From: Candidatus Iainarchaeum sp.
Lineage (GTDB): Archaea > Iainarchaeota > Iainarchaeia > Iainarchaeales > JAZDFD01
Assembly (NCBI GenBank): GCA_043808155.1
Contig: JAZDFD010000012.1
Location: forward strand, 1-64,000
Direction of reading: 5' to 3'
DNA length: 64,000 nt
Positions within the stretch are counted from its first letter, which is position 1. Every line of letters starts with the position of its first letter. The notes below the pieces were generated by a model. That model searched no databases. It had not been told where the DNA came from and saw nothing but the letters and a program-made list of their open reading frames with translations. Positions 41,503 through 56,699 of the stretch are shown one piece after another. The translations under genes and the position numbers were made by a program.

Positions 41503-41511
41503 ATCTTTTAA

Positions 41512-42065: not shown

Positions 42066-42836
42066 TCACCTGCGCCTTGCCAAAAACGTGTTAAATCTAT
42101 CCATAATGGATGTCTTTTCCTCGTATTTTTTCCCAATTAATGTAGCGGCAATTTGTTTAAACGCATAAGCAGCCGGAGAAAAAGGGTAAAGCGTTACAAC
42201 AGGCTGCCCAAAAGAAACAGAGCTCGCCACCAACGAGTCTTCAGGCACTTTCCCCAAAATTTTAATATTTCCCATGATCAAAACAATTTCCTCATCAGTT
42301 AGCTCGTGCTTGAATCTTCCGCTCCTGTTAATTATTACTCCCGCGATTTCTACTCCAAGATCTTGGGCAATCTGAATAGTTTTGCTCGCATCAGCCAACG
42401 AGGGCAATTCAGGGTTCAGGACAATAATCGCATTTTCACTTGCCTTAAGAGCATTAATTACTTCAACCCCCAAGCCGGGAGCGCAGTCAATTAAAGTCAA
42501 ATCGTTGTTTGCTTCAATTTTTTTAATCAGTTTCTTAAATTTTTTTGGTTCAAATCCCTGAAGGCTTTCAACGCCGAATGCAGCCGGAATCACTCTGACG
42601 CGTGGTTTCAATAAATAGGTTGCTTTCTCTATTCCGGCTTCTCCTCTAATTACGTCATTCAATGTTTTCACTTCTACCGGAATCTTTAAATGCAGTGCAA
42701 TATTGGGCGTGGGCAAATTAGCATCAACAATAGTTATATCCTTTCCAAACATCCCTAATGCCACACCTAAATTGATTGTTGTGCAGGTTTTTCCAACACC
42801 GCCTTTTCCACTGCAGATTAAAAAACTTTTATTCAT
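42066..42836 (-). CDS. minD: MinD/ParA-family ATPase
   Basis: SGKGGVGKT deviant Walker A, VDAN, IDCAPG, C-terminal amphipathic IMDRFNTFLARRR. Confidence 0.85.
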   Translation of the reverse strand: MNKSFLICSGKGGVGKTCTTINLGVALGMFGKDITIVDANLPTPNIALHLKIPVEVKTLNDVIRGEAGIEKATYLLKPRVRVIPAAFGVESLQGFEPKKFKKLIKKIEANNDLTLIDCAPGLGVEVINALKASENAIIVLNPELPSLADASKTIQIAQDLGVEIAGVIINRSGRFKHELTDEEIVLIMGNIKILGKVPEDSLVASSVSFGQPVVTLYPFSPAAYAFKQIAATLIGKKYEEKTSIMDRFNTFLARRR

Positions 42837-43460
42837 TCAAAATCTCCTAAGCTTTTTCAATTTTTCTTCTAATTCCTTAAATCTCTTTGCACTCCAATTA
42901 AATTCTTCTTCCTCTTTTGTTTTGGGGATTGAAATTTCAGTGTAATGCCCGATAATAGTAGCTGTTTCAACAGGCTTTTTTTCTTTCTCAACTTTTTCAA
43001 TTTTTGGTTTTTCTTCCGGCAAAGATTCTTTTAAAATAGCGGCAACTAATTCTTTTTCTTTTTCAACAGGCTTAACAGCTTTCGTCTTAACCTTTGGCTT
43101 TAATTTTATTCTCTGGTTTTTAATTTTTTTCTTTTTTTCTCTTTTAACTTCTTTTTTTAATTCTGCTGCGACAGCTTTAACTTTTTCCTCAACAGCTTTA
43201 ACTGGTTTTTCTATTTTCTCTTCAACCTTTTCAGTAACAGCAGCTATTTCTGGAATTTTTACATCAAATTTGGCTGCTCTTCTGTTCCATTTTGCTGTAC
43301 GTTTTTCTGCCCAAGTATCCGTCCTTGCCTTTCTTCTGGCATGCCTAAAAGCATGTTTTTCTGCCCAAGTATCCGTCCTTGCCTTTCTTCTGGCATCCCT
43401 TGCAGCATCATTTCTCTCAATTTTCGCATGATGCAAATCAATTTTTCTCTCCAAATCCAT
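42837..43460 (-). CDS. Basic low-complexity protein with an 18-aa repeat
   Basis: ARRKARTDTWAEK twice (42-bp exact repeat at 43301 and 43355); Lys/Glu-rich; C-terminal coiled coil; abuts minD. Confidence 0.65.
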   Translation of the reverse strand: MDLERKIDLHHAKIERNDAARDARRKARTDTWAEKHAFRHARRKARTDTWAEKRTAKWNRRAAKFDVKIPEIAAVTEKVEEKIEKPVKAVEEKVKAVAAELKKEVKREKKKKIKNQRIKLKPKVKTKAVKPVEKEKELVAAILKESLPEEKPKIEKVEKEKKPVETATIIGHYTEISIPKTKEEEEFNWSAKRFKELEEKLKKLRRF

Positions 43461-43477
43461 ACATATCACGTGTAAAT

Positions 43478-43627
43478 TTATTCGGCTTCAAGTTTTTTGT
43501 CCCTTTCTTCAAGCCACTTGTCCCACTTTCTCTTCCACTTTGCGCTCTTGCCTGTAAAGCCACTTCTCCTTGCCCATTTAGCATTCCATCTGGCTTCCCT
43601 TCGAGAGGCTTTTTCCCCCAATTCCAT
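43478..43627 (-). CDS. 49-aa Trp/Arg-rich small protein (absent from the ORF track)
   Basis: MELGEKASRREARWNAKWARR...; GGTGG RBS; resembles the N-terminus of the next ORF. Confidence 0.55.
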   Translation of the reverse strand: MELGEKASRREARWNAKWARRSGFTGKSAKWKRKWDKWLEERDKKLEAE

Positions 43628-43650
43628 TTTAAATCCACCAAATAAAAATT

Positions 43651-43938
43651 TTATTTTGTTTCTTCCTCACTTATTTCTGACGGGCCAGTATCGCATTTTC
43701 TCCTTACTGAAACCCGACTGTAACCCAAAAGATTATTGCTTGCATCAAAGGTCAACTTGTATTGGCCAATGAGGTTCTGTGTGTCAGGTATTGCTTCCCT
43801 TTCAAGCACTTCAACCAATGCAACTGATTTGTTGCCTTCTTTTGTTACGCTGATTACGCTTAACGGCTTTTTATCTATCAGCTCTTTAACGTTTTCCTTA
43901 GCCAGCTTAACGATTTCATTGAATTCATTTTTTGCCAT
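43651..43938 (-). CDS. gvpO: Gas vesicle protein GvpO
   Basis: VEVLERE.IPDTQ.LIG.Y....D...L.GY.R. Confidence 0.88.
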   Translation of the reverse strand: MAKNEFNEIVKLAKENVKELIDKKPLSVISVTKEGNKSVALVEVLEREAIPDTQNLIGQYKLTFDASNNLLGYSRVSVRRKCDTGPSEISEEETK

Positions 43939-43956
43939 TTCTCATACCTCCTAACT

Positions 43957-44322
43957 TCAGGGGACATAAATGTAATGATCTCCCTTTTCCTTAACAACTT
44001 TTACTTTTTTATTTTTCCATTTACGAATGTTATCAACTAAATTGTACTCCTCCGGAGAATCTGTTAATTTGTAGTAAGTTAAAAATTTCGCAAGCTTCTC
44101 CCTTCTTAACTTGGCAATGTGATTCGGGGTTTGCAATGAAAAAGTTCCGTCTGCTTTCAGGCAGGTGAAAAAAGTTTCCTTTACATTTTCACCGCCTTTT
44201 ATTTTTGCTGTAACAACAATTGCATCAGTGTCATTGAATGTAAGGCATTTGGGCTTGCGTTTCCATAAATCAAATACTTTGTAAATCTTTGCATCTTGAA
44301 TCACTGCATTTTTTTCTTCCAA
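43957..44322 (-). CDS. Hypothetical protein inside the gvp operon
   Basis: Tightly packed between gvpN and gvpO. Confidence 0.6.
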   Translation of the reverse strand: MEEKNAVIQDAKIYKVFDLWKRKPKCLTFNDTDAIVVTAKIKGGENVKETFFTCLKADGTFSLQTPNHIAKLRREKLAKFLTYYKLTDSPEEYNLVDNIRKWKNKKVKVVKEKGDHYIYVP

Positions 44323-44328
44323 ATTAAT

Positions 44329-45393
44329 TCACCATTTGTGCAAGTTTAATTTATCGATTGCGGTTTTAATTAATGCCCCTTTCTGCTCCAAGTCCACTGA
44401 ATCCTTTGTCTTTGAAGCAATTGCATCAAAGCATAATTGCTCAAACAAATCCGTGCTCATGCCGTTTGTTACTCTAATTGCATGGGCAAGCATTATCGCT
44501 GGTCTTGTTCCTGGGGCTTCGGTTCCCTTCAGAGTTTCCCTCAAGTGCCTGACTACTCCAACTATTTTTTTAGCATCTGCGTCAGCAATTTTGGCGTGGG
44601 CCTTAACTATTGCAACTTCAGTTGCCTCGTCATAGTAGTCCATGTAAATTGCGCAAATTCTGTCCAGCAAAGCATCTTGCGGCTGGTGTACGCCGGCATA
44701 CTCAGTATTGTTTGAGGTTAAAATCAGATTGAAATCAGGGTGCACTTTTATGTAGCGATCTTCACCAAACTTTGTTGGCAGTTCAAGAATTCCTTCTTCT
44801 AAAATCGAAAGCAAAATGTTATTTGCCTCCGGCTTTGACCTGCTGAACTCATTATAAATCAGGGTATAGCCTTTCTGGCAGGCTAATGCCAAAGGGTTGT
44901 TAACCCACTGCGGCTCAATAATGTCCTCACTTTTGTAAACATTGTGAATGTACTTATCCCTCAGGCTTTTCATTTCAATTCTTGAGTAGCCGCCAATTAA
45001 CTCATGAGTTGTAAGCTGTTCATCCCCGTTAATCCAAACTGCGGGCTTTCCCAGCTTTTCAGCAATGTGAATTGCCAAAGCAGTTTTTCCACAGCCTGTT
45101 GGACCAATAATATGCACGGGATAGCCGGCCTTAATCCACAAAAGAGCCCTGTCCTCATATTTTTTAACTGCATCTGTTAAAACAAAATTTTTCGATTCTG
45201 GGGTTAAAAACTTTGCTTCAACAATCTGGGTTTCCTCCAGCTTGTAAGTTTTCTCAATATCTCTTTCCCTTACTGCTGATTTTTTTCTTTCAACAGTCTG
45301 CTGTTTTTTTCTTTCCTCCTGCGTATGATGAACTGATTTCCCTCTAGTAGTTCTCGGATGTGTTTCTACATATGTCATTTCTTTAACCCCCAT
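44329..45393 (-). CDS. gvpN: Gas vesicle AAA+ ATPase GvpN
   Basis: GYPVH..GPTGCGKT, YNEFSRSKPEANN.LL, EYAGVH..QDALLDR. Confidence 0.95.
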   Translation of the reverse strand: MGVKEMTYVETHPRTTRGKSVHHTQEERKKQQTVERKKSAVRERDIEKTYKLEETQIVEAKFLTPESKNFVLTDAVKKYEDRALLWIKAGYPVHIIGPTGCGKTALAIHIAEKLGKPAVWINGDEQLTTHELIGGYSRIEMKSLRDKYIHNVYKSEDIIEPQWVNNPLALACQKGYTLIYNEFSRSKPEANNILLSILEEGILELPTKFGEDRYIKVHPDFNLILTSNNTEYAGVHQPQDALLDRICAIYMDYYDEATEVAIVKAHAKIADADAKKIVGVVRHLRETLKGTEAPGTRPAIMLAHAIRVTNGMSTDLFEQLCFDAIASKTKDSVDLEQKGALIKTAIDKLNLHKW

Positions 45394-45579
45394 TGTAAAT
45401 TTTTATCATTAAGTTTTCCCAACTGCTAAATATTATATGTATCGCTAATTTAAACATAACGGAAACAAAAAAAATTATCGGAAAGTTAAGCCAGCAGAAA
45501 AACCTAAATATGTGTCCCATATGTCCCAACACCCAAAAATAAAAAAAGAGAAAAGCCAAGCAAAGAGAGACACTAGTTG

Positions 45580-45951
45580 TTACTCTTTAACATGGCCGTG
45601 GTAGAACCGATCAATGAATTTCTCTGTGTCCTTTTCTAAAGCCCTTATGCTGGCATGCATTATGTTAACGCCTTTCTCTATTTCTCTAGTTTTTTCTCTT
45701 ATGCCAGCTTTTACTGCATCGATACCTTTTTCAATTTCCTTTACGGCTGCTGTGTTTTCTCGCTCCTGTGCTCTAATGCCAGCAACTACTTCCGAAGTGC
45801 CTTTCTCCATTGCCTTTACTGCTGCTTCATTTTCTCTTGCTTGCCTTTCAAATGATTCCAGATGTTTTTTTACACAAGTTACTTTCTCTTTTTCCCTATG
45901 TTTTACTCTGTGCTTTACCTTATGTCTGGTTTTAAGTTTCTTTCTAGCCAT
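45580..45951 (-). CDS. GvpC-like helical repeat protein
   Basis: Lies between gvpA and gvpN; about 25-aa repeats Q.REN.AAVK..EKG...V.AGIR. Confidence 0.6.
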   Translation of the reverse strand: MARKKLKTRHKVKHRVKHREKEKVTCVKKHLESFERQARENEAAVKAMEKGTSEVVAGIRAQERENTAAVKEIEKGIDAVKAGIREKTREIEKGVNIMHASIRALEKDTEKFIDRFYHGHVKE

Positions 45952-45993
45952 ACATGAACTCCTCCTTTTTTAGGTATTGGAAAAGCATTAGGC

Positions 45994-46215
45994 TTACTTT
46001 GCCGGCGCTGCTATCGCTGCTTGCTCTACCTTTGTAATCTCTTCAGCGTAGTGCAGGAACGTATCAACACTTGCTACTACAACACGAGCTTCAATAGTTA
46101 AAATTTCAATTCCAACCAATGAAATTCTTGCCCATATGTCTACCACAATTCCTTTGTCTAAAATTCTGTCCAAAACTTCTGCTAAGCTTGAAACATCAGG
46201 TCCTTGATTTACCAT
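45994..46215 (-). CDS. gvpA: Major gas vesicle shell protein GvpA
   Basis: [51 protein letters not shown]; start MVNQ after a GGAGGTG RBS. Confidence 0.97.
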
Positions 46216-46304
46216 AGCTTTTACACCTCCATTTTTATTGTAAAAACTTACATTAGAAATATGTAATAGGTTGCTTATATGCTGATTTAACAAATCGCGA
46301 CATG

Positions 46305-46319
46305 TGTCGGAATTCGACA
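46305..46319. promoter_or_regulatory. Palindromic operator candidate upstream of gvpA
   Basis: TGTCG-GAATT-CGACA; the same motif recurs at 48090 and 48120. Confidence 0.6.
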
Positions 46320-46518
46320 TTTGGTTAAATGCCTCAAAATATTTTTACTTGCTCGCCAGGTCTTTTCTTTTAACATACGTCAAGACCTTTTCGTCATCTC
46401 GCTTGGGGCAACTGGCTCTGAGCCAAAAACACTCTCTGCTGAAAAAAATAAAAACTTTTTCTAATCATATCAATTATTAAATATTTTTGTTGCAAATTTT
46501 ACATATTGAGATAAATGC

Positions 46519-47670
46519 GTGAATGAAATGGCAAAAAGTTCAATTGTTAAATTAAAGCGCCGAAATAAAGGCATCGAAGCAGATGAATTTATTAGATTTT
46601 CCAAAAAAATTCCCTTCACACAAAAGGAGCGAATTGTTTTTTATGGCTTAGTTAAATTTCCTGACTTAAACGACCAAAAATTGTCCAAAAAATTGAAAAT
46701 TAAGAGGCCGACTGTTACAGCAATCAGAAATAAGTTGAAGAGGCAAAATTTTTATTTTCCTCGCGTTATCCCAAATTTTAAATTGCTGGACTATGAGTTA
46801 ATGACATTTATTTGGGGTAATTCAAGCTACTCTGTATCATTGGAAGAAAAAAGAAAAATTTCTGCAATTAAAAACGCTATGCAATCGCCTGAAGTAGTTT
46901 TTCAAATTATAACAGATAATGAATTTTTTTCTTTACTAATTTTTAAAAACTTTACAGAATTTAAAAAAATGGAGGATGGATTTGCACACATGTATAAAAA
47001 ATATTCTTCCAGGGAACGCAATGTTAACATTGCCCATTTTCCACTTGAAACAAGCGAAATACTTTCTTTATTTGATTATTCCTTATGTTTAAAAGATTTG
47101 TTAAAATTAAAGCCTGAAGACAAAAAGACTGCAACAAAACCAAAAACATCAAAAGCAGTGCCATTAATGGAACTGAAGGAAAGAGAAAAGGCTGTTTTAG
47201 GCGTTCTAATCAAATACCCTGGATTAAATGATGCGGAGATTGCAGAGAAAGTTAGCATCACAAGGCAAACTGCTTCAAAAATTAAAGCAGGGTTAATAAA
47301 AGAAGGGGCAATTAAACTAATTAATGAGCCGAATTTTAAAAAAATTGGCTGTGAGTTATTTGTTGCCACGCATACTAGATTTAATCCCCAAGTTGAACCA
47401 AATAAAAGAAAGTTGTTGCTGGAAAAGCCAAAAAGCAAATGCCCCACAATAATTGACGTGGAAAGCTGTACAGAAGAAATGTGTGGCGGCTTTTTCGAAG
47501 ATTACCTAAGCTTTAAAATGACTCAAGACGATTTGGAAAAAGTTTATAGGCAAAAGGATTTGTTGTTAAGAGAACCAGTAACCCAAATAATTCCAATGCA
47601 ACAAATAAAATTTTACAAAATAGATTTTGTTCCAATTACTGAAAAAGCCTTGAATATAAAAATACCATAA
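46519..47670 (+). CDS. Tandem winged-HTH (Lrp/AsnC-like) regulator
   Basis: Two similar halves: L.K.P.LND..L...L.I.R.T...I...L. Confidence 0.75.
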   Translation: MNEMAKSSIVKLKRRNKGIEADEFIRFSKKIPFTQKERIVFYGLVKFPDLNDQKLSKKLKIKRPTVTAIRNKLKRQNFYFPRVIPNFKLLDYELMTFIWGNSSYSVSLEEKRKISAIKNAMQSPEVVFQIITDNEFFSLLIFKNFTEFKKMEDGFAHMYKKYSSRERNVNIAHFPLETSEILSLFDYSLCLKDLLKLKPEDKKTATKPKTSKAVPLMELKEREKAVLGVLIKYPGLNDAEIAEKVSITRQTASKIKAGLIKEGAIKLINEPNFKKIGCELFVATHTRFNPQVEPNKRKLLLEKPKSKCPTIIDVESCTEEMCGGFFEDYLSFKMTQDDLEKVYRQKDLLLREPVTQIIPMQQIKFYKIDFVPITEKALNIKIP

Positions 47671-48089
47671 AAAAGGATTATTTTTTCATTTATTTTGATT
47701 TCTGCCACTCCTTTAACTCCCACCATTTTATCAAACAGTTTCTGACAGCAAAACCTAATTCTTCATCATCAATTTTGTTAATTATTTGAAGCCTCTTTAC
47801 CACCTCTTTTGGAATATTCATTTCCAACTTTTGTTTTGCTAGCTTTTTAGTCATTTTGAAAAACCAATCCCACGGCAATTTATTTGAATTGAAAAAGAAA
47901 CCGACATATCTATAATCTTAACTTTTAGATGTTTTAAAAGCTTAATTAATAACTTTAAGTTTTAAAAAAGAAAAAAAATATAACTTAGTGATATTTTATT
48001 TATCAAATGTTGTGGTTAAAAGTATCCGAATATTAACGTAAAGCATTTAAATTCTAACATTATGATAGTATCGGGTTAATTAATATCCG

Positions 48090-48134
48090 TGTCGGATAAT
48101 GACATAAATTTCAGAAATATGTCGAAGCCCGACA
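48090..48134. promoter_or_regulatory. Two operator-like palindromes upstream of the rightward gvp operon
   Basis: TGTCG-GATAA-TGACA and TGTCG-AAGCC-CGACA, 30 bp apart. Confidence 0.6.
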
Positions 48135-48266
48135 AAAAAGAATAAGTCTCAAAAATTAGGGGTTGGGATATTTGGCTAAATGCATAACTAATAAAGAAAA
48201 AGCAGCGAATTCTTTTTCGGAGAATGGAACATTCAAATCACAGTCTCTTTCGGGGGGGGGCAACGA

Positions 48267-49148
48267 ATGAAAAAACATGAATCCCACACCAAAAAAATCA
48301 AAACTATTTTTTCAGGCATTGGTGGGAAGAAACACATATTGCATTTATACGTTCCAACATTGGATAAGTATGCAATTCAGTCCTCTTTTCTGGGAAATAA
48401 AAAAGAAAAAGCTGCCTATGTCTCAACCGAGCAACCAGAAACTGTGCATGCACAACTTGATTCATCACACAAAAACTTGTCAATAATTTCTCCAAAGGAA
48501 ATGGAAACAATTGAAAACTATAATAAAATAATTATTGATGCAGGCTCAATCAGTTCAAAAACAATTGACACCAGCAAAAAACACAAAAGAAAAATTGGAG
48601 AAGACTTAATAATAAAGGAATGCACAGACCACATCAAAAGGGAAAAATATTTATCAAAGCTTAAAGGTGATAAATCAATTCTCTGCACTTATGATATAAG
48701 CAAATTAACACCAAACAAAATCAGGCAATTAGTTAAGGTCCATGACCAATTGATTTTGACAACAGACGACACAGCTGTGGTTTCATCAAAAACCCTTTCA
48801 CAAGAGCATTTGAACATCAGCAGTGAATTAATCGACGAATTCCTAAAAAATGAATTAGAAACAGTTGTTTTGGCACTAATTGTAGCAAAACCGAGGTGCG
48901 GGACAGAAATCAAAAAAGCAATCCATAAAAAATTTGGAATTCTGCTCAGCTCCGGCACGCTTTATCCCTTACTGCACAAGCTGCAAAAAAACGATTTAGT
49001 GAAATGCGAGTACGGGGTAAAAACAAAAACATACAGACCAGCTAACGGAAAAGATATTCAAATAATTTTGGATGAAAGAATGAAGGCAAAAGATTTCTTA
49101 ACCAGCTTTATTCAAGCAAACATGGGGGGGAATAAAAAATGGCTTTAG
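48267..49148 (+). CDS. MEDS-like sensor domain plus PadR HTH (GvpE-like regulator)
   Basis: N-terminal HILHLY...ILCTYD; C-terminal G.EI...I...FG.LLSSGTLYPLLH.L. Confidence 0.7.
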   Translation: MKKHESHTKKIKTIFSGIGGKKHILHLYVPTLDKYAIQSSFLGNKKEKAAYVSTEQPETVHAQLDSSHKNLSIISPKEMETIENYNKIIIDAGSISSKTIDTSKKHKRKIGEDLIIKECTDHIKREKYLSKLKGDKSILCTYDISKLTPNKIRQLVKVHDQLILTTDDTAVVSSKTLSQEHLNISSELIDEFLKNELETVVLALIVAKPRCGTEIKKAIHKKFGILLSSGTLYPLLHKLQKNDLVKCEYGVKTKTYRPANGKDIQIILDERMKAKDFLTSFIQANMGGNKKWL

Positions 49149-49798
49149 GTGAATATGTTTACTGTGTTATATCTAGCAAAGACACGCCAGAAGAATTTAA
49201 TATTAAAGGGATGGACGGAAATCCCATATATCCCTTAAAATATAAACTTCTTACAGCAATAGCAAGCAAAGCAGTAATGAAAGAATACAAGCCAACAGAC
49301 GAAAACGTTGAAATACACAAAAATGTTGAACTGGAAGTAATGAAACACTGCTCGGTTCTGCCAGTGGCATATGGAATGGTATTCAAAAGCAGGGGCATTG
49401 TATTGGGAACAGTGAAAAAAGTTTATCCATTGCTTTGGAGAAGCCTGAAAAAAGTGGAGAATAAAGTAGAATTGGGAATCAAAGTAATTGTTCCAAAAGA
49501 AAAAAAAGAATTAGAAAAATTATTGAACAAAAAAAGTTTGGATGAATTCAGGAAAGAATGCGAAACAGAATTCATTGAAAATTTGAGTGAAATAGCTGTA
49601 AGTACAAAAAAAGACCGCTTGTTTTCAGATAAGCTGGTTTGCAACCAGTCATTTTTAGTGGAAAAAGATAAAGTTGATACATTCACTGAAAAAGTGGGGG
49701 AATTGAGAAACAAGCACAAGTCATTGAAAATCCAGTACACTGGACCATGGCCGGCGCACAACTTTGTAAACATAAGAATAATGGGTGGAGGCAGATAA
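49139..49798 (+). CDS. gvpF: Gas vesicle protein GvpF (GvpL/F family)
   Basis: YVYCV, H..V, VLP..YG.VF, SFLV, YTGPWPAHNFV. Confidence 0.9.
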   Translation: MALGEYVYCVISSKDTPEEFNIKGMDGNPIYPLKYKLLTAIASKAVMKEYKPTDENVEIHKNVELEVMKHCSVLPVAYGMVFKSRGIVLGTVKKVYPLLWRSLKKVENKVELGIKVIVPKEKKELEKLLNKKSLDEFRKECETEFIENLSEIAVSTKKDRLFSDKLVCNQSFLVEKDKVDTFTEKVGELRNKHKSLKIQYTGPWPAHNFVNIRIMGGGR

Positions 49799-49800
49799 AA

Positions 49801-50103
49801 ATGGTGCTTATGGTTGATGATTTACTTACATTGCCATTTGCATTTGTAGGCATGGAGCTCTTGCCTAATTATTTTACTATTATATTTAATGCAATATATA
49901 AACACACTCTTGAGGAAATGTATCCCTTGGATAAAATCAATGACGCAATAAAAGAAAACCGTATGCTGTACGAGTTTGACGAACTTACAACAAAAGAATA
50001 TGAGGCAACAAAAAAACAATTAATGGAAAAATTGGAGATGGCAAAAAAGGTAAGGGATATGGATTTAGGACCAAGGTTAGATATTTTGGGAATTGGTGGT
50101 TAA
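49801..50103 (+). CDS. gvpG: Gas vesicle protein GvpG
   Basis: DDLL..PF...EEMY..D.I...IKENR.LYE..E....EY; start moved to 49801. Confidence 0.8.
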   Translation: MVLMVDDLLTLPFAFVGMELLPNYFTIIFNAIYKHTLEEMYPLDKINDAIKENRMLYEFDELTTKEYEATKKQLMEKLEMAKKVRDMDLGPRLDILGIGG

Positions 50104-50105
50104 AA

Positions 50106-50669
50106 ATGGAAAGAAAAAGAAAACCTGCGAAAGGATTGTTGGATGGATTGGCAGACTTCATCCGGTTGATTGAGGAAATGGAAAAAAAGGGCTTGACTGA
50201 ACAGGTGAAAAGGGGAGACTTGGAAGGGCCTTACGGCTCAAAAGTAAAATATGAGTACAGGGTAAGAACCGGTTTGGGAATAAGGCCTGGGAGCATGGAA
50301 AGGTTTGCAGGCAAACCAAGCGAACCATTTTATAGGGCAAGCAAAAGAATGCCAACCAAGGTAATAAAGCCGGAGGAAATGAAAGAAAAAGAGGAACTGG
50401 CAGAAGTAACAGAAAAAAAAGACACAATAGAAATTACAGTTGAACTGCCCACGGTTGAAGAAAAAGACATTGATTTAAAGATAGTGAAAAACGCTTTGAA
50501 AATTACTGTTAAAAGACCTGAGGGAAAAATAGAGAAAATGATTTCAATTCCAAAAGGCAGCAAAGCAGAAAAGATTGAAAAGGCTTCATTCAAAAACGGC
50601 ATACTTGAAATAACTTTAAAAAAGAAAATAAAGAAGAAAAATAAAAAGGGGGTAAAACCAAATGGTTGA
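50106..50669 (+). CDS. gvpH: Gas vesicle protein GvpH (Hsp20-like)
   Basis: YEY.V.TGL, VELP.V....I, FKNGILEI; follows gvpG. Confidence 0.75.
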   Translation: MERKRKPAKGLLDGLADFIRLIEEMEKKGLTEQVKRGDLEGPYGSKVKYEYRVRTGLGIRPGSMERFAGKPSEPFYRASKRMPTKVIKPEEMKEKEELAEVTEKKDTIEITVELPTVEEKDIDLKIVKNALKITVKRPEGKIEKMISIPKGSKAEKIEKASFKNGILEITLKKKIKKKNKKGVKPNG

Positions 50670-51039
50670 CGAAATCGGCAGATGGAAGGTTGGAGCTGAC
50701 TCAGTGGACAGAAGGGACGTAATAAAAGACAGAATCAGAAGGAGGGCGGAGCAAAACTTGGAAAAAAGCAGGAGAAAAATTCTGGAGCTCAGGAGAAGAT
50801 ACAAAATAAAAGTCAAAAGAAACGAGGAAAAAATGAAGAAGCGCAAAAAATATGGGGAAAAGCTGGGCCCAACATGCGTTTCCCTGATGGATTCAAGGGA
50901 AAAGGCAAAACAAAAACGCTCGGCAATAGGGTCTTTGGTTCCTGAAAAACCAAAGTTCTCCCAGGCAAAAGGCCGTCCGGAAAGAATCTATGGAAAAAAA
51001 TTTGAATTAAGGGAACTGAAACAAGAGCAAAGGAGGTAA
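50662..51039 (+). CDS. Highly basic protein, possible GvpI analogue
   Basis: Arg/Lys-rich; occupies the gvpI position. Confidence 0.5.
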   Translation: MVDEIGRWKVGADSVDRRDVIKDRIRRRAEQNLEKSRRKILELRRRYKIKVKRNEEKMKKRKKYGEKLGPTCVSLMDSREKAKQKRSAIGSLVPEKPKFSQAKGRPERIYGKKFELRELKQEQRR

Positions 51040-51045
51040 TCCCAA

Positions 51046-51432
51046 ATGAGAAGAAAGCATGAATGGATTCGCCAAAGAAAAAAGAGGGGGGAGGGATTTT
51101 CTGAAGAAGACTCCCCAGAAGAAACTACCGAGTTTGCAGAAGAACAGGCTGAAGAAGCAACGGGAGAACCGATTGAAGAAGCAGCGGAAGAAAAAATAGG
51201 AATAGAACCATTACAAGAACAAGAGGTTGTTTTAAGACCATTGAAAATAAGTTCACAGAAAAGAAGTTTCATAACATTCAGAAAAAGAAGAAAAATTGGT
51301 GATGGCATGCTTGAAAAAGAAATTAAAGAGCAAAAAGCCAAAGCTAAAAAAGCAATGAAAAAGCTGATAAACGAATTACCTGAAGAGCAGAGAAAAGCAT
51401 TCCTTGAGGAACTCCTTGAAGAATATGAATGA
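51046..51432 (+). CDS. Hypothetical protein with alternating charge blocks
   Basis: Basic-acidic-basic blocks; tightly packed in the operon. Confidence 0.55.
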   Translation: MRRKHEWIRQRKKRGEGFSEEDSPEETTEFAEEQAEEATGEPIEEAAEEKIGIEPLQEQEVVLRPLKISSQKRSFITFRKRRKIGDGMLEKEIKEQKAKAKKAMKKLINELPEEQRKAFLEELLEEYE

Positions 51433-51448
51433 GTTTGAGTGAAACAAA

Positions 51449-51775
51449 ATGCCTAAATTAAGACCCAAAAGTTATCAATCGCACGGAGTAAAGCAAATTA
51501 TTGAAAGAATGTTAGACAAGGGAGTAGTAATTAATGCAAAGATTAGAGCTTACCTTGTTGATTTTAAATTAATTGAGCTGGAAAGCATTGTTGTGCTTGC
51601 GTCGTTTGAAACTGCGGCAAAAATTGGCGTGTCTTTCCCAAAGGGTATTGATTTTGAAACAAAAGCATGGAAGGAGCTTTTAACAAAAGAAACCTGTCCT
51701 CAATGCAGGAAAAAGGTCTATGAAGAAGAACTGCGATTAGGTTGTCCTTGGTGCAGCTATAAATTAGGAGGTTAG
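51449..51775 (+). CDS. GvpA/J-family protein with C-terminal zinc ribbon
   Basis: IERMLDKGVVIN...ASFETAAK.G; CPQC...CPWC. Confidence 0.85.
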   Translation: MPKLRPKSYQSHGVKQIIERMLDKGVVINAKIRAYLVDFKLIELESIVVLASFETAAKIGVSFPKGIDFETKAWKELLTKETCPQCRKKVYEEELRLGCPWCSYKLGG

Positions 51776-51782
51776 ATTTAGG

Positions 51783-52193
51783 GTGAAGGAAAAAGAGAAA
51801 TTGGAAGTAATTGAATTTGAAGATGAAGAGGCATTGCAGCCGGAAAAAAGCACCCAAACAGATTCAACTCTAGCAGCAGTGATTGACAGAGTATTGGAAA
51901 AGGGGCTGGTGATAAATGCAGACATAACTGTAAGCGTTGCTGATACGGAACTGCTTGGGATAAAAATCAGGGCAGCACTGGCAAGTTTTGAGACAGCGGC
52001 AAAATACGGCTTGCAGTTTCCTCAGGGCACGAATATGGAAACAGCAGCATGGAAAGAGGCAATAGTTGAAAAGGAAGAATGTCCAAACTGCGGAAAGAAA
52101 GTGGAAACAGAACAGCTTTTGAATAAGTCATGCTATTGGTGCGGATGGCAGTCTGCTAAATCAAAAGCTTTGAAAAAAATTGAAGTTCGTTAA
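51783..52193 (+). CDS. gvpJ: Gas vesicle protein GvpJ with C-terminal zinc ribbon
   Basis: LAAVIDRVLEKGLVINADI.VSV...ELLGIKIRAALASFETAAKYGL.FP.GT; CPNC...CYWC. Confidence 0.88.
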   Translation: MKEKEKLEVIEFEDEEALQPEKSTQTDSTLAAVIDRVLEKGLVINADITVSVADTELLGIKIRAALASFETAAKYGLQFPQGTNMETAAWKEAIVEKEECPNCGKKVETEQLLNKSCYWCGWQSAKSKALKKIEVR

Positions 52194-52212
52194 AGCTGTA
52201 AAGGTTTTTGCA

Positions 52213-52395
52213 ATGATTGACCCAGTTAGCCAAACAATTCTAAGGAGGATTGAAGAAAGGGTAAAAGCAGAACCAAGAGAGGGGAATATTGCCTATAGAA
52301 AGCAGTGTCCAAGGTGTATGAAATGGCAAGTAAAAGAAGTTTTAATGAAAGAAGGTTGTTTTAAATGCGGATGGAAACAAAACAAAGCAAGGTAA
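52213..52395 (+). CDS. Stand-alone zinc-ribbon protein
   Basis: CPRC...GCFKCGW, with the same spacing as the GvpJ tails. Confidence 0.6.
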   Translation: MIDPVSQTILRRIEERVKAEPREGNIAYRKQCPRCMKWQVKEVLMKEGCFKCGWKQNKAR

Positions 52396-52913
52396 ATTTA
52401 TTCATGAATGAATTGGATACCGAAAGCAGGTCAATTGTTTCATATCTTTTAATCAAAAAGCATGCGCGAATAAATGAGTTAAGTGATTTAATAAACGAAA
52501 ATGATACTCTTACTATAATTAAAATAAAGGAAGCCATAAATCCGCTGGCTGAAAAAATTTTTGGAATGCAGATTCTTGTTTTTAAAGAAAGTGCAATTGA
52601 TATAAGCGAAGGAAGGAAAGTATTGTTTTCCTGGTGGCTGGAAAACGCGGAAGAATTAATTGAAGAGCAGAAAAAGGAATTAATTGATGTTTTTGACGAA
52701 AAAGATTATGTAAAAGTTGTAATGGAACTGCCTGACAGCAAAAATATTAATGCAAAAATCAACGGAAACGAACTAATAATAACTGCAGAAAAATCAAATG
52801 AAAAAATTTGCAGAAAAATTCCCTTAAGTGCGGATGTGAAAAAAATAATTGGAAAAAGATACAACAACAGCGTGCTGGAAATTAAACTGGAGAAAGGGGC
52901 GGAAAATGTCTGA
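52365..52913 (+). CDS. HTH-like N-terminus plus Hsp20-like C-terminus protein
   Basis: DVFDE...VKVVMELP...NNSVLEIKL; start may be 52403. Confidence 0.65.
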   Translation: MRMETKQSKVNLFMNELDTESRSIVSYLLIKKHARINELSDLINENDTLTIIKIKEAINPLAEKIFGMQILVFKESAIDISEGRKVLFSWWLENAEELIEEQKKELIDVFDEKDYVKVVMELPDSKNINAKINGNELIITAEKSNEKICRKIPLSADVKKIIGKRYNNSVLEIKLEKGAENV

Positions 52914-52971
52914 AAGGAAGAAAAGAAAAAGTAGCGATTGGTTTGAAGAATTTTGGAAAAGGTAATAAAAA

Positions 52972-53316
52972 ATGGTTACAAAAATTGATTTGAAAAATGA
53001 TGACAAAGAGAGCCTGAAAAACGGCGTAATGGGATTGGTGCTTGCAATAGTTGAAGTGATAAGGGATGCCTTGCGCCTGCAGGCAATAAGGCGAATTGAA
53101 GGAGGCTCTCTTACAGAAGAAGAAGAGGAAAGATTGGGAAGAGCGTTGGAAGACTTTGATGAAGCAATTGAAAAAATGAAGGAAGAGCAAGGCCTGAATG
53201 AAGCAACGCAAAGTGTTAGAAATGGTCTTGACGATTTGGCAAACGATTTAGTGAATAACTTTCTCAATGAGGAGCAAATAAAAGCTGCAGATAAGGGTGG
53301 AAAGCTTGGAAAATAA
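52972..53316 (+). CDS. gvpK: Gas vesicle protein GvpK
   Basis: G...LVL.IVE..R..L..QAIRR.EGGSLTEEE.ERLG.AL. Confidence 0.92.
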   Translation: MVTKIDLKNDDKESLKNGVMGLVLAIVEVIRDALRLQAIRRIEGGSLTEEEEERLGRALEDFDEAIEKMKEEQGLNEATQSVRNGLDDLANDLVNNFLNEEQIKAADKGGKLGK

Positions 53317-54073
53317 AGAGCAGGGAAGGTATATTTACTGCGTAGCAAAAGGCAGTGAACAAACAGATTTGGGGAAAATAGGGATAGAAAACAGCGAAGT
53401 TTACACTATTCCAAGCAATGGATTAATTGCAGTAGTGCATGACTGTGGAGCAAAAGCATACGATTCAAAAAATGAGGAAAAAGTGAAGGAATGGATTAAA
53501 CAGCATGAAAATGTGATAGAGAAAACGCAGAAAAAATTTGAAACAATTGTTCCATTAAGTTTTAATGTAATAATAAAAGGGGAAAACGCAAGCAAGGAAG
53601 TGACTAATTGGCTGCAAACTGAAAAAGAGAGACTTGAAAGAAACCTGGAAAAAGTAAAGGGAAAAGAGGAATTCGGAGTGCAAATAACTTGGGACCCTAT
53701 AAACATTGGAGAAAAATTAAGCAAAGAAAAAGAGGGAATCAAAAGTTTATTAGAAGAGATGGAAAAAGCCTCAAAGGGACAGGCCTACTTTATCAAACAA
53801 AAGATAAAGAAAGCATTGAAACAGGAAATGGAAAAACTGGCTGACGAGAAATTCAAGCAATTTTATTCAGAAATCAAAAAGCACTGCTACCGGGTAAATA
53901 TTGATAAAAACAAAAAAACCGAGGTAGAAAAAGAAATGCTAATGAACCTGAGCTGCCTTGTGGCAAAGGAAGAGGTTAAAGCCCTTGGAAAGGCGCTGGA
54001 TAAAATAAACAAATTAGATGGATTTAGTGTAAGGTTCACAGGTCCCTGGCCGCCTTACTCATTTGTAACTTAA
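53297..54073 (+). CDS. gvpL: Gas vesicle protein GvpL (GvpL/F family)
   Basis: GRYIYCV, HENV, IVPLSF, NLSCLV, FTGPWPPYSFV. Confidence 0.9.
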   Translation: MESLENKEQGRYIYCVAKGSEQTDLGKIGIENSEVYTIPSNGLIAVVHDCGAKAYDSKNEEKVKEWIKQHENVIEKTQKKFETIVPLSFNVIIKGENASKEVTNWLQTEKERLERNLEKVKGKEEFGVQITWDPINIGEKLSKEKEGIKSLLEEMEKASKGQAYFIKQKIKKALKQEMEKLADEKFKQFYSEIKKHCYRVNIDKNKKTEVEKEMLMNLSCLVAKEEVKALGKALDKINKLDGFSVRFTGPWPPYSFVT

Positions 54074-54080
54074 AGGAGCG

Positions 54081-54395
54081 ATGAAAATGGAACCAACGAG
54101 AGAAAAAAATGCAACGCTTGTTGATGTGCTGGACAGGGCATTGAATAAAGGATTGTTAATTAATGCTGACTTAATTATTTCAGTTGCAGATATCCCGCTT
54201 ATTGGGGTTAATTTGAAAGCAGCAATTGCAGGAATGGAGACAATGCTCGAATATGGCATGATGAAAGATTGGGATGAGGCATTGAGAGCAATTGCAAGGG
54301 AAGAAAGAGCTAGAATTGCAAAAAAAGAAAAAATTATTACGTCTTTAAGTGAGAAAAATGAACACAGCACTATATCTTTACTGCGCAGTAAATGA
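54081..54395 (+). CDS. gvpM: Gas vesicle protein GvpM (GvpA/J/M family)
   Basis: MEPTR...LVDVLDR.L.KG....AD.IISVADIPLIG.NL.AAIAGM.TM.EYG...WDE. Confidence 0.85.
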   Translation: MKMEPTREKNATLVDVLDRALNKGLLINADLIISVADIPLIGVNLKAAIAGMETMLEYGMMKDWDEALRAIAREERARIAKKEKIITSLSEKNEHSTISLLRSK

Positions 54396-55071
54396 AAGAA
54401 GTGAAAAAAGCTTTGGCCACATTGGCTTTCAGGAACAGGAGGTTTACGCTGTTCCGTATAAAACTATTAGTGTTGTTGTGCAGTCTTGCTCTGCTAAGGA
54501 ATTAAGGAACAAGCGCCAAACAGAGTTAGCTATAAATCACCAATATATAATAGATTTGGTAATGAGAGAATTTAATGAGGTAATTCCATTTAATGCTGCT
54601 ATAGCGGTTAAAAACAAAAAAAATTTGAATAAAGTGCTTTCACTCAAATACAAAAAAATTAAATCAGAGTTGGCGGAAAAAAAAGACAAAAGGGAATACG
54701 GCATTCAAATATTTTATTCTCCTCTCTATTTAAAGGAAAAAGCAGGGGTTTTAACCAGTGTAAAGTCATTTGTTTTGCAGCAGGAGCAAAAAAGAAACCT
54801 GTCAATGCATAAAGAAGCCAAATACAAAACCTTCCTGTTAAACGAGTTAAGGGAGTTAATTGATGAAATAAAAGTTAACTCCGCTTTCAGGGCATCAATT
54901 GAAGACTTAAGGGATAAAAGAATTTTATTAAACTTAAGCTGTTTGGTGCATAAGGACAATGCAAAAAAACTTGAGGAAAAACTTGCTGAAATCAATAATA
55001 AAAAGGAATTCACCGTCAAATTTAACGGCCCGTGGGCGCCATATTCTTTTACAGAAATACTTGAGGAATGA
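54349..55071 (+). CDS. Third GvpL/F-family protein
   Basis: LYLYCAV, VIPFN, EYGIQI, NLSCLV, GPWAPYSF. Confidence 0.85.
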   Translation: MRKMNTALYLYCAVNERSEKSFGHIGFQEQEVYAVPYKTISVVVQSCSAKELRNKRQTELAINHQYIIDLVMREFNEVIPFNAAIAVKNKKNLNKVLSLKYKKIKSELAEKKDKREYGIQIFYSPLYLKEKAGVLTSVKSFVLQQEQKRNLSMHKEAKYKTFLLNELRELIDEIKVNSAFRASIEDLRDKRILLNLSCLVHKDNAKKLEEKLAEINNKKEFTVKFNGPWAPYSFTEILEE

Positions 55072-55074
55072 AAA

Positions 55075-55761
55075 ATGAGGAAATTGTTGTATGTGCCTAT
55101 TCTGCATTCCGCTGCAGACCTTGGCAGTATTGGGAAAGATGTTACAAGCAAGGGAGTTGAATTAGTTGGCCCAGAAAAATGGAAAAAGCATTTGCACACA
55201 ATTGACTTGTTTTGGGATTCAATTGAAAACTATTTTCATGAACTGAACGTAGAGAAATTTAAAATATTTCAAGACGGCTTTGTTGTCAGCGGAGAAACCA
55301 GTGAAAAAATTGTTAACGAAGTAGCAGCAAAGGGAAGCAGAAACTATGAAGTAATTAGAGACCTCATTAGCAGGGGCGCAAAAATTATGAAAACAGAGGA
55401 GCTTTCTTTAGTTAAAAGAGAGGTAGTTTACGTAAGCAAACTTGCAAAGGCAAAAAAGTTAACAGAAAAACTGACTGCTTATTTGCAATATAAATTAAAC
55501 AAAGGAAACCTGTTAAATAAAAGGGATGAATTTATTGCAAAAACAATTAATGAATCCTTAAAAGAGGGGGAAACTGGCGTATTGTTCTTGGGGGCATTCC
55601 ATAATGTAGTGCCTAAACTTGAGGGAGATATAAAAGTAATTGAACTGAAGGAAAAAGAAAAAGTTGTCAAATACCAGAAAATTTATTACTTCAAAACAAA
55701 AGAAAAGGAAACAGATGAGTTAAGCAAATACCTTGTGGCGCCAATAAAGGAAGTGTTTTAA
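55075..55761 (+). CDS. Hypothetical protein at the end of the gvp operon
   Basis: YVPILH..ADLGS, QDG, RDEFIA..I, LFLGAFH (TraB-like motifs). Confidence 0.65.
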   Translation: MRKLLYVPILHSAADLGSIGKDVTSKGVELVGPEKWKKHLHTIDLFWDSIENYFHELNVEKFKIFQDGFVVSGETSEKIVNEVAAKGSRNYEVIRDLISRGAKIMKTEELSLVKREVVYVSKLAKAKKLTEKLTAYLQYKLNKGNLLNKRDEFIAKTINESLKEGETGVLFLGAFHNVVPKLEGDIKVIELKEKEKVVKYQKIYYFKTKEKETDELSKYLVAPIKEVF

Positions 55762-55762
55762 A

Positions 55763-56194
55763 ATGAAAAACTTCAGGGAACTGCATGGAAAAAAGAGGAG
55801 AGGCAAAGTTTCAGCAAAGAGAAAAATGGAGCTAAGCGAAAAAAGATTGCTGGCAAATGCAAGAAAAGTGTTTCAAAAAATCAGGAGAAGAAAGAAAACA
55901 AAAGAACTGGCTTCACTGCTCCCTGATACTGCAATAAGAATTGATTTGGTTGGCTCGCCGGAAGTAAGCTTTATGCTGTTAATAAAAAATGGGAAAATTG
56001 GTTTTTCTACAAAGAGAACAGCTGCGAGGCTTGCAATAGGAATCCATAAAGAGCTGTTCTTAAAACTAATTAAAAATCCCCCTAAAACAGGGAACCTGAA
56101 AATTGCATTATTTGACAACATTTTCCTAAGAAAGGGCCCGATAAGGGAATTTCGATGGCTAAAGGCAATCTTGGTGCACTTTTTGTTAGGGTAG
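55763..56194 (+). CDS. Basic hypothetical protein, possible SCP2-like fold
   Basis: Operon-packed; weak beta-strand pattern. Confidence 0.5.
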   Translation: MKNFRELHGKKRRGKVSAKRKMELSEKRLLANARKVFQKIRRRKKTKELASLLPDTAIRIDLVGSPEVSFMLLIKNGKIGFSTKRTAARLAIGIHKELFLKLIKNPPKTGNLKIALFDNIFLRKGPIREFRWLKAILVHFLLG

Positions 56195-56264: not shown

Positions 56265-56699
56265 TTATTCTCCGCCCTCTATTTCAGCACACTCGCCTTC
56301 AACGCACTCTTGCCCTTCAGCACATTCCACTTCTGCACAAAGATCAACTGCAATACATTCTCCTTCAAGGCATTCCTCTCCTTCAAGGCATTCAACGCTT
56401 TCACAGGGATCCACAATCACTGTCTGGCATTCAACAGCACAGCACGCTTCGGTATCACTTGCTTCAATTAACTGCTCGCAGGTTTGCTCTTCTGCGCAAA
56501 TGCTTCCGTCCTGCTCTTCACAGGTTTTCAGTACACACTCGCCTTCAGCGCACTTTTGGTTTGCTTCGCAGGTAACGTCAGCGCAAGGGTCTGCTGGAGG
56601 AGTTTCCTCTTCTTTCACTGGTGGTATAGTCAACACAATTGCTGCCAATATTACAATGACTACAACGCCAATAATTATGTACAAAGTATTATTTTTCAA
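56265..56699 (-). CDS. Membrane-anchored acidic Cys-rich repeat protein
   Basis: DPC..V.C..G..C..G.C repeats. Confidence 0.75.
   Translation of the reverse strand: MKNNTLYIIIGVVVIVILAAIVLTIPPVKEEETPPADPCADVTCEANQKCAEGECVLKTCEEQDGSICAEEQTCEQLIEASDTEACCAVECQTVIVDPCESVECLEGEECLEGECIAVDLCAEVECAEGQECVEGECAEIEGGE

Follow-up and report, generated by a model that had tools for sequence, protein, structure and literature searches.

The window examined here is a stretch of 64,000 nucleotides, bases 1-64000 of the 87,821-bp contig C12 (JAZDFD010000012.1) from an uncultured archaeon, and its main feature is a gas vesicle (gvp) gene cluster that occupies the block at 42066-56194. Open reading frames (ORFs) were listed over 40000-58500, and 25 candidate proteins were scanned against Pfam and NCBIfam. 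Gas-vesicle families are matched in 12 ORFs of the block. The Gas_vesicle and GvpL_GvpF models give no match in 14 control genomes, and the matches in the block are far above chance. The Pfam gathering cut-offs are 25 bits for Gas_vesicle, GvpK and GvpO, 23.6 for GvpL_GvpF, 30.6 for GvpG and 22 for GvpH. The gvp genes of the block are as follows, with scores in bits and from Pfam unless NCBIfam is named.

45994..46215, minus strand: gvpA, major shell protein of 73 aa (ORF up to 46320); Gas_vesicle 53.5
44329..45393, minus strand: gvpN, AAA+ ATPase; NCBIfam TIGR02640 gas_vesic_GvpN 343.1 against a cut-off of 266.8; AAA_5 62.1
43651..43938, minus strand: gvpO; GvpO 60.6 against a cut-off of 25
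49139..49798, plus strand: gvpF; GvpL_GvpF 143.1
49801..50103, plus strand: gvpG (ORF from 49747, with the ATG at 49801 after the gvpF stop); GvpG 31.8 against 30.6
50106..50669, plus strand: gvpH-like Hsp20-domain protein; HSP20 32.4, GvpH 21.3 against a cut-off of 22
51449..51775, plus strand: first GvpJ-type protein, with a C-terminal CxxC...CxxC tail; Gas_vesicle 25.6 against 25, NCBIfam halo_gas_GvpJ 54.2, below its cut-off
51783..52193, plus strand: second GvpJ-type protein, with a C-terminal zinc-ribbon tail; Gas_vesicle 55.5, NCBIfam halo_gas_GvpJ 106.5 against a cut-off of 125
52972..53316, plus strand: gvpK; GvpK 68.4 against 25
53297..54073, plus strand: gvpL; GvpL_GvpF 217.9, NCBIfam gas_vesic_GvpL 206.2 against 200
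54081..54395, plus strand: gvpM; Gas_vesicle 55.5, best NCBIfam model halo_gas_GvpM 101 against a cut-off of 109
54349..55071, plus strand: third GvpF/L paralogue; GvpL_GvpF 131.8

The layout of the cluster is divergent. gvpA, a repeat protein, gvpN, a 121-aa gene and gvpO run leftward, regulators and gvpF onward run rightward, and the two units meet between gvpA and the gene of a 383-aa winged-helix protein. A sequence-only reading of the window had described an apparently complete gas vesicle cluster that mirrors the haloarchaeal arrangement, and every gene it named lies where it had been placed. Completeness of the essential set, as claimed there, is borne out by the scans: the genes given as essential in Halobacterium in a passage of one source (F, G, J, K, L, M, A and O; PMC9501494) are all present and intact, together with N and H, and the ORF listing shows no frameshift or internal stop in any cluster ORF. 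The mirroring of the haloarchaeal layout holds for the outline and the gene order but not for regulation, as the cluster lacks GvpD and GvpE and has other regulators in their place. GvpD and GvpE models match 0 of the 25 cluster ORFs in Pfam and NCBIfam at E up to 0.01, the rest of the genome lying outside this search. Because a PadR fusion and a double winged-helix protein sit where GvpD and GvpE would, the likeness to the p-vac cluster is one of outline only. Scans of the block with bacterial-type promoter and terminator models, which are ill-suited to archaea, yield no more sites than are found in shuffled sequence.

Several of these assignments are sharpened by further comparisons. GvpA passes the NCBIfam GvpA models (129.8 against a cut-off of 112, and 127.4 against 100) and matches solved shell proteins in the PDB (8gbs, E 1.9e-22; 7r1c, E 1.4e-21). 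Its start is probably the ATG at 46215, with GGAGGTG upstream, which gives a protein of 73 aa. For gvpG, the best NCBIfam match is the GvpG model at 55.6 bits, below the cut-off of 85. Zinc-ribbon tails on the GvpJ-type proteins were considered as a special feature of the window and rejected since they are common in this cluster type: of 62 bacterial loci, 54 have at least one zinc-ribbon-tailed J-type protein, as do 9 of the 11 other archaeal loci.

The many extra genes reported by the sequence-only reading are also present, and they exceed those it named. The additions are the 121-aa, 383-aa winged-helix, zinc-ribbon, second Hsp20-like, 228-aa and 143-aa basic proteins, plus a MinD paralogue and a Lys-rich repeat protein at the left end. 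Genes of the cluster other than the gvp genes above are given below; L### denotes retrieved loci or contigs and G### other genomes, with G000 for the genome of the window, pI is the isoelectric point, and dN/dS is the ratio of nonsynonymous to synonymous substitution rates.

45580..45951, minus strand: 123-aa basic repeat protein at the gvpC position; no Pfam or NCBIfam Gvp match
43957..44322, minus strand: 121-aa conserved protein between gvpN and gvpO; no family match
46519..47670, plus strand: 383-aa winged-helix (TrmB/MarR-like) protein; Pfam TrmB 34.1 bits, HTH_24 27.6 bits
47690..47878, minus strand: 62-aa small ORF; no family match, kept in L117 (64%) and in L008 of G160 (58%)
48267..49148, plus strand: 293-aa MEDS-like/PadR winged-helix fusion; Pfam PadR 37.1 bits
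50662..51039, plus strand: 125-aa very basic protein at the I position; no family match, pI 10.7
51046..51432, plus strand: 128-aa acidic protein; found in close relatives alone (44-58%), dN/dS 0.26-0.34
52180..52395, plus strand: 71-aa stand-alone zinc-ribbon protein; CxxC-x14-CxxC, weak zf-C6H2 match
52365..52913, plus strand: 182-aa second Hsp20-like protein; NCBIfam archaeal Hsp20 E 1.2e-14, below the cut-off
55075..55761, plus strand: 228-aa conserved accessory protein, TraB/PrgY/GumN-ChaN-like by predicted fold and weak family matches
55763..56194, plus strand: 143-aa very basic protein, pI 11.6; close relatives alone (76-77%), dN/dS 0.18-0.19

Independent copies of the cluster exist. 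A GvpL scan of metagenome contigs recovers seven loci at 68-95% identity and 32-39% GC, and L114, L117 and L118 show the full gene order, family-less ORFs included. In these three, one strand carries N, the repeat protein and A; the other carries the 383-aa gene and the 62-aa ORF, then the PadR fusion with F, G and H, then the genes for the 125-aa and 128-aa proteins and two J genes, followed by the zinc-ribbon, Hsp20-like, K, L, M, F/L, 228-aa and 143-aa genes. Another copy is found in G160, a genome of the same order and another family (82% complete, 210 contigs), whose cluster parts are 42-88% identical to those of the window and lie on two short contigs, one with PadR-F-G-H-I-like and one with J-J-Hsp20-like-K-L-M-228. 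In comparisons with both L117 and L118, dN/dS (NG86) is 0.006-0.34 for 21 of 21 genes at dS of 0.5-2.3, near saturation, and the GvpA protein is 100% identical to that of L118 at dS ~1. The compared cluster genes, family-less ones included, are under purifying selection; since dN/dS is this low in every gene compared, each ORF is constrained and the cluster is not decaying.

The gene at the gvpC position had been called GvpC-like. This description fits its place and its composition, with three repeats of ~25 residues (offset 25) and a pI of 9.9, but not its ancestry, as no GvpC homology is detected against Pfam or NCBIfam at E up to 0.01. A PDB search returns weak coiled-coil-type matches alone (E at least 0.085). 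The 123-aa protein is kept in L117 (78%) and L118 (51%) with dN/dS of 0.06-0.25, and weak matches to it occur at the equivalent position in Methanoperedens and Altiarchaeota-labelled loci. By analogy it is a candidate outer brace of the vesicle and not a GvpC homologue. In the metagenome contig L117, the repeat protein at this position gives two adjacent overlapping matches (L117:976-1491), which suggests that it is longer, or has more repeats, than that of the window. Repeat number in the gvpC-position protein may differ among relatives, as in GvpC.

A similar case is the gene described as I-like, for which the position after gvpH and the pI of 10.7 agree with the description but a match to any family is lacking. 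GvpI itself has a pI of 10.8 according to a passage of PMC9501494. The 125-aa protein is kept in close relatives (69-85%), in Methanoperedens (39%) and in the clusters of a second phylum (33-40%; G336, G489, G357, G383 and G615, with genomes of 1.1-1.5 Mb). Its place after gvpH, its size and its charge make it a candidate analogue of GvpI. Among the smaller proteins of the rightward unit, the stand-alone zinc-ribbon protein is found in close relatives (56-64%) with weak matches in 37 retrieved loci, and the 182-aa Hsp20-like protein is matched in 68 retrieved loci.

Conservation of the 121-aa protein between gvpN and gvpO is confined to archaeal clusters. Its orthologues, 33-50% identical and with 20 invariant columns, occur within the gvp clusters of loci labelled Bathyarchaeota or Altiarchaeota and of five second-phylum loci, and Atlas groups it with archaeal hypothetical-protein clusters. 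The Atlas features also suggested a RegA-like translational repressor (score 0.91), yet 0 of 8 members match that Pfam family and this identification is rejected for now.

Two proteins stand at the head of the rightward unit. The gene of the 383-aa winged-helix protein has an equivalent position in L114, L117 and L118 (49-70%) and in G160. The 293-aa protein joins a PadR winged-helix domain to an N-terminal domain whose MEDS match is weak (16.3 bits against a cut-off of 29.8, residues 126-159). The motifs H-x-LHLY, DAGS, CTYD and H-x-x-L-x-LTT of this domain are conserved in eight orthologues. Genes orthologous to the fusion, with 26 invariant columns, stand directly ahead of gvpF in the clusters of Bathyarchaeota-labelled genomes, Methanoperedens, G160 and the second phylum. 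The fusion is the best candidate for a sensor-regulator of the cluster, and it and the 383-aa protein are likely regulators in place of GvpD and GvpE.

Toward the right end, the 228-aa gene is present in 21 retrieved loci, chiefly bacterial gvp clusters but also an Altiarchaeota-labelled metagenome-assembled genome (MAG). The AlphaFold2 model of the protein has a mean pLDDT of 88.6. Its best structural matches are ChaN (Z 8.5 over 164 residues, root-mean-square deviation 4.7) and HopBA1 (Z 8.1), values near 8 being borderline, followed by EreC (Z 5.7), 2rad (Z 5.7) and RRSP (Z 5.4). Foldseek also ranks ChaN best (E 0.03). With the Pfam TraB_PrgY_gumN model, the protein of the window reaches 13.3 bits, the cut-off being 26.8; weak matches to the model are given by 14 of 20 family members, with a best E of 0.0013 and all below the cut-off. 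These sub-threshold sequence and fold signals agree and point to the TraB/PrgY/GumN-ChaN-EreA (TIKI-like) superfamily. A putative role as a hydrolase or in ligand binding is a lead only.

How such a cluster would work can be outlined by analogy with haloarchaeal and bacterial systems. GvpA would polymerise into a ribbed shell that is permeable to gas and excludes water. The GvpJ-type proteins, GvpM, F, G, K, L and O would form an early nucleation complex, and the AAA+ ATPase GvpN would then drive vesicle enlargement. Chaperones or modulators may be provided by the pair of Hsp20-like proteins and by the basic I-like protein. The ~25-residue-repeat protein may brace the exterior of the shell. 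The winged-helix protein and the MEDS-like/PadR fusion would be likely to regulate the two divergent units. Vesicle formation, buoyancy and the roles of the family-less proteins are all predicted by homology with the haloarchaeal and bacterial systems. What the cluster adds is a new host lineage for a known organelle system, not a new mechanism.

The cluster could also be real and resident without conferring buoyancy, as silent acquired cargo, as a means to control cell shape or volume, or as a gas reservoir. This alternative is improbable. It draws on the patchy occurrence of the cluster and on the sequencing runs that share parts of 39000-48900, among which no RNA run is listed (seven rows from four studies, best word share 0.33, from groundwater and biofilm metagenomes). 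Organisms bearing gvp genes, moreover, have often never been seen making vesicles, and few gvp-possessing Haloarchaea do so, according to a passage of PMC4390858. Against this alternative stand purifying selection on 21 of 21 genes in comparison with two diverged relatives, a GvpA protein unchanged at dS ~1, and cluster ORFs free of frameshifts and internal stops. The cell also spends ~14 kb of a 1.08-Mb genome on the cluster, and the archaellin gene was not found in that 88%-complete genome, so that no alternative motility device is evident.

Several observations place the block in the chromosome of its apparent host. It is internal to the contig, with IleRS, tRNA-Ile and thermosome genes on the left flank and RIO kinase, HD hydrolase, MscS and CorA genes on the right, and the CorA gene has counterparts in 11 same-order genomes at 52-64% identity. 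GC content is 0.35-0.36 in the block and averages 0.350 over the genome. In tetranucleotide make-up, the block lies at a distance from the genome mean that falls in the 92nd-97th percentile of 262 windows and is thus compositionally atypical; the flanks are at the 45th-56th percentile. The distance is below the genome maximum of 0.034, and a strong purine and Lys/Glu bias in the cluster probably explains part of it. Chimeric misassembly, a possibility raised by the sequence-only reading, finds no support in position, flanks, GC or independent copies, and a chimeric origin of the block is unlikely.

An assembly or binning artefact in a wider sense, with the block coming from another community member such as a member of Bathyarchaeota or a methanogen, is very unlikely. 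Its attraction lies in the atypical tetranucleotide composition, in the rarity of gvp genes in the phylum, and in the nearest GvpA and GvpN relatives beyond small-genome archaea, which are Bathyarchaeota-labelled and Methanoperedens proteins. Most genes are, however, 35-56% identical to those proteins, which leaves no close donor in either group, and, with the block lying well within an 87.8-kb contig, two false joins would be required. The host lineage is matched on either side of the block (thermosome, CorA), GC equals the genome mean with the tetranucleotide distance under the genome maximum, contamination of the genome is 0.36%, and the same cluster type occurs in a same-order genome and in seven metagenome contigs of 32-39% GC.

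The host genome itself is small. G000 comprises 1,077,490 bp in 35 contigs and is 88.47% complete and 0.36% contaminated. Its GTDB phylum holds 215 species genomes, and those listed span 0.5-1.5 Mb; the same-order genomes listed with it also span 0.5-1.5 Mb, single-contig ones at 94-99% completeness included. The phylum affinity of G000 was judged from the named relatives of one protein, the thermosome, whose gene lies 1.7 kb away from the gvp cluster. Among its best 120 relatives, 23 bear organism names and 16 of these are Diapherotrites or Iainarchaeum (14 Candidatus Diapherotrites and 2 Candidatus Iainarchaeum); the other seven are five entries named 'archaeon', one Aenigmarchaeota and one Micrarchaeota. 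The host of the cluster is thus supported as a DPANN archaeon, most probably of the phylum Iainarchaeota, in agreement with the DPANN-like host that the sequence-only reading had proposed and for which it had suggested a placement of the thermosome. The name Iainarchaeota is less secure than the DPANN assignment because the nearest named gvp relative is labelled Micrarchaeota. The claim of a non-haloarchaeal host with Lys-rich proteins is likewise upheld: the cluster and its flanks encode 39 proteins, and for 24 of them the computed pI is at least 8, a pattern at odds with a salt-in halophile.

That the host belongs to some archaeal lineage outside DPANN, with a small or incompletely recovered genome, is the least probable alternative of all: the phylum label does depend on the named neighbours of one protein and submitter labels disagree, the nearest gvp relative being labelled Micrarchaeota, but both disagreeing labels denote DPANN phyla, and the genome has 1.08 Mb at 88% completeness with order relatives of 0.5-1.5 Mb, some of them single-contig at 94-99%.

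Gas vesicle genes are scattered among related archaea. GvpL/F genes are found in 2 of the 215 genomes of the phylum, G000 and G160. In a GvpL profile search of genome contigs, the best match is a Nanoarchaeota-labelled MAG (G215, 57%), followed by an Altiarchaeota-labelled MAG (49%), and most of the other loci among the 80 retained are bacterial (Dehalococcoidia, Desulfobacterota and others). G215 belongs to the second phylum mentioned above. Of 401 genomes sampled from that phylum, 8 have GvpL/F genes, G215 included, all eight being 1.1-1.8 Mb in size, and full clusters are carried there by contigs of 283,780 bp and 76,837 bp. The sequence-only reading had regarded gas vesicles in a DPANN archaeon as unexpected. 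They are indeed rare by these counts, but they are not unique to G000, being found in at least two small-genome phyla.

GvpN bears on the ancestry of the cluster. In a tree of 49 rows, of the kind the sequence-only reading had proposed, 15 archaeal rows form a clade with SH-aLRT 100, and a branch of length 1.2 divides them from 33 bacterial rows and one Methanomicrobiaceae row. The clade is made up of the window, L117, two copies from an Altiarchaeota-labelled MAG, Methanoperedens, five Bathyarchaeota-labelled rows and five second-phylum rows. Within the best 120 relatives of GvpN, every one that bears a name is archaeal; the nearest of these are MAGs with the labels Micrarchaeota (70%), Nanoarchaeota (60-65%) and Aenigmarchaeota (60%). 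For GvpL, a tree under LG+G4 with 95 rows puts the window clade on the bacterial/methanogen side, and the identities of GvpK, GvpL and the 228-aa protein also lean bacterial/methanogen. A mixture-model tree with 45 rows, in disagreement, joins the window clade to the Bathyarchaeota/Methanoperedens/second-phylum clade with support of 85. Because the two GvpL trees conflict, a mosaic origin of the cluster was dropped and no claim of it is made. The sequence comparisons assign the cluster to an archaeal gvp lineage common to Bathyarchaeota-labelled, Methanoperedens and other small-genome archaea. Patchy occurrence, archaeal affinity and the existence of close relatives fit a gain by transfer between archaea, after which a small clade would have inherited the cluster vertically.

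Another observation concerns G216, the Altiarchaeota-labelled MAG (L023/L092 and L094), which carries two GvpN genes on different contigs, 54% and 56% identical to that of the window. One has a reading with an internal TAA, and the second adjoins a homologue of the 228-aa TraB/ChaN-like gene. G216 may hold two gvp clusters of different types.

Public records and the literature differ in what they say of such genes. Gvp names already stand on homologues in public MAG records labelled Micrarchaeota, Nanoarchaeota, Aenigmarchaeota and Altiarchaeota. In the literature searched, supplementary tables being outside the search, neither gvp genes nor gas vesicles were found to be reported from DPANN, Bathyarchaeota, Altiarchaeota or Methanoperedens; in two papers that match gas-vesicle and DPANN terms, the term concerned haloarchaeal hosts or the reference list alone. 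As far as searched, DPANN gvp genes are visible in databases and apparently undiscussed in the literature. Archaeal gas vesicles are treated as a trait of haloarchaea and some methanogens in a passage of PMC9501494.

Taken together, the window probably holds a genuine and intact chromosomal gvp cluster of an uncultured DPANN archaeon with a small genome, most likely a member of Iainarchaeota (Diapherotrites). Several points weigh against this conclusion. The trait is rare, being found in 1 of 214 other genomes of the phylum and in 0 of 58 genomes at 90% completeness or above. Neither a GvpN nor a GvpA-type gene was found in G160, with its 82% completeness and 210 contigs, and the flanks of L114, L117 and L118 diverge from the window past a 136-aa membrane protein just beyond the cluster. 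The nearest named relative of both GvpL and GvpN bears the submitter label Micrarchaeota, not Diapherotrites. The GvpC-like and GvpI-like assignments depend on position and composition. To these are added the atypical composition of the block and the lack of an RNA run among the matching sequencing runs.

A broader reading, that ultra-small DPANN archaea of an Iainarchaeota clade build gas vesicles and use them to regulate the depth of a free cell or of a host-symbiont pair, is somewhat favoured. They would do so through an archaeal cluster type in which a short 25-residue-repeat brace stands for GvpC and a MEDS-like/PadR sensor-regulator for GvpD and GvpE, and to which a putative TraB/TIKI-like hydrolase has been added. 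If this is true, these organisms would be among the smallest cells known with a protein-bounded organelle. DPANN archaea have minimal genomes and small cells, and their cultivated members are all host-dependent, according to a passage of one source (10.1101/2023.02.24.529834). Gas vesicles would suggest that a lineage usually deemed host-bound has a planktonic phase in which it lives free at least in part, and a conserved 14-kb cluster in a genome of ~1.1-1.2 Mb would mean that buoyancy is worth more than 1% of coding capacity. The reading bears on free-living DPANN archaea in the water column, on dispersal and host finding, and on the minimum cell size for gas vesicles. Compact gvp sets with basic proteins from non-halophiles are also candidates to screen as acoustic reporter genes. 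The 121-aa, TraB/ChaN-like, MEDS-like/PadR and short repeat proteins are candidate assembly or control factors, common to many uncultured anaerobes.

The ends of the cluster and the ground just past it contain further genes, whose features are these.

42837..43469, minus strand: 210-aa Lys-rich repeat protein; no family match, 18-residue direct repeat, pI 10.0
42066..42836, minus strand: archaeal MinD-type ATPase, a second and divergent copy; NCBIfam minD_arch 222.7 bits against a cut-off of 201.75
56265..56699, minus strand: 144-aa very acidic (pI 4.1), Cys-rich protein with an N-terminal hydrophobic segment and C-x-EGEC-like repeats; no Pfam match
56875..57285, minus strand: 136-aa small membrane protein just past the cluster; same place and strand in L114, L117 and L118 (66-82%)
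57529..58106, minus strand: overlapping ORFs of 110 aa and 87 aa in a toxin-antitoxin-like arrangement; the 110-aa ORF starts with CxxC...CxxC and has no Pfam match at E 1e-4

Whether the MinD and 210-aa genes are part of the gvp cluster is uncertain. The 210-aa gene lies downstream of gvpO after a gap of 181 nt, its stop codon abuts the MinD start, and it has no homologue in any retrieved locus. The related metagenome contigs end before the MinD region, their left ends being missing. The other MinD of G000, on contig C1, scores 302.6 bits and is 37% identical to the copy in the window. A ParA-like gene adjoins gvpF in G522, a genome of another phylum; the MinD of the window is equally distant from that gene (37%) and from the other MinD of its own genome. 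MinD as a vesicle-positioning ATPase was set aside, given that it has no special likeness to the G522 gene and that none lies within 20 kb in five other second-phylum clusters. As a weak lead, the pair may position vesicles or may merely be neighbours.

Elsewhere in the window, a tRNA-Ile with anticodon TAT (37550-37625, minus strand) lies directly upstream of the IleRS gene at 34636-37479. A UAU isoleucine tRNA is an unusual means of reading AUA in archaea. Farther left, on the minus strand, 24486-27080 encodes an 864-aa HerA/DUF87-type ATPase with an intein that includes a LAGLIDADG homing-endonuclease domain (splicing domain at residues 75-500), and 22134-24449 is a 771-aa ORF with no Pfam match at E 1e-4.

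The closest parallels to the cluster are distributed over four kinds of system. Bacterial 'anaerobe-type' clusters, from Dehalococcoidia, Desulfobacterota and others, share with it a zinc-ribbon-tailed J-type protein, an Hsp20-like protein, the K-L-M run and the 228-aa gene (37-49%). They differ in a GvpN that lies beyond a long branch and in having no PadR fusion, 121-aa gene or I-like gene.

The second-phylum clusters are complete, with A, a PadR-like gene, N, O, the PadR fusion, F, G, an I-like gene, J, the 121-aa gene, K, L and M, and they belong to the same archaeal GvpN clade as the window. However, their 121-aa gene comes after J, a single J-type gene is detected, their GvpL is 25-35% identical to that of the window, and the 228-aa, second Hsp20-like and third F/L genes are absent from the retrieved stretches.

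Another group is formed by the Bathyarchaeota-labelled and Methanoperedens clusters (L059, L078, L082, L086 and L090), for which no experimental studies were found in the literature searched. These run in one direction, whereas the units of the window diverge; the 228-aa, 128-aa, 143-aa and 383-aa genes are absent from the retrieved stretches, and most of their proteins are 35-56% identical to those of the window. They nevertheless fall in one GvpN clade with it (SH-aLRT 100), have a GvpA that is 80-85% identical, and keep the order A, (repeat protein), N, (121-aa), O, PadR fusion, F, G, which continues as in the window with J, Hsp20-like, K, L and M.

The last system is the p-vac cluster of Halobacterium salinarum. 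In family scans of its ORFs, the cluster of the window has no GvpD, GvpE, GvpC or GvpI homologue, and its regulators are instead the MEDS-like/PadR fusion and the winged-helix protein. It has as extras the 121-aa gene, a second J-type, the zinc-ribbon, a second Hsp20-like, a third F/L, the 228-aa and the 143-aa genes, and its proteins are basic, not acidic. Beneath these differences, the two clusters are alike in having two divergent units, A-(C position)-N-O and F-G-H-(I position)-J-K-L-M, with the genes in the same order, and all eight genes that are essential in Halobacterium have their counterparts in the window.

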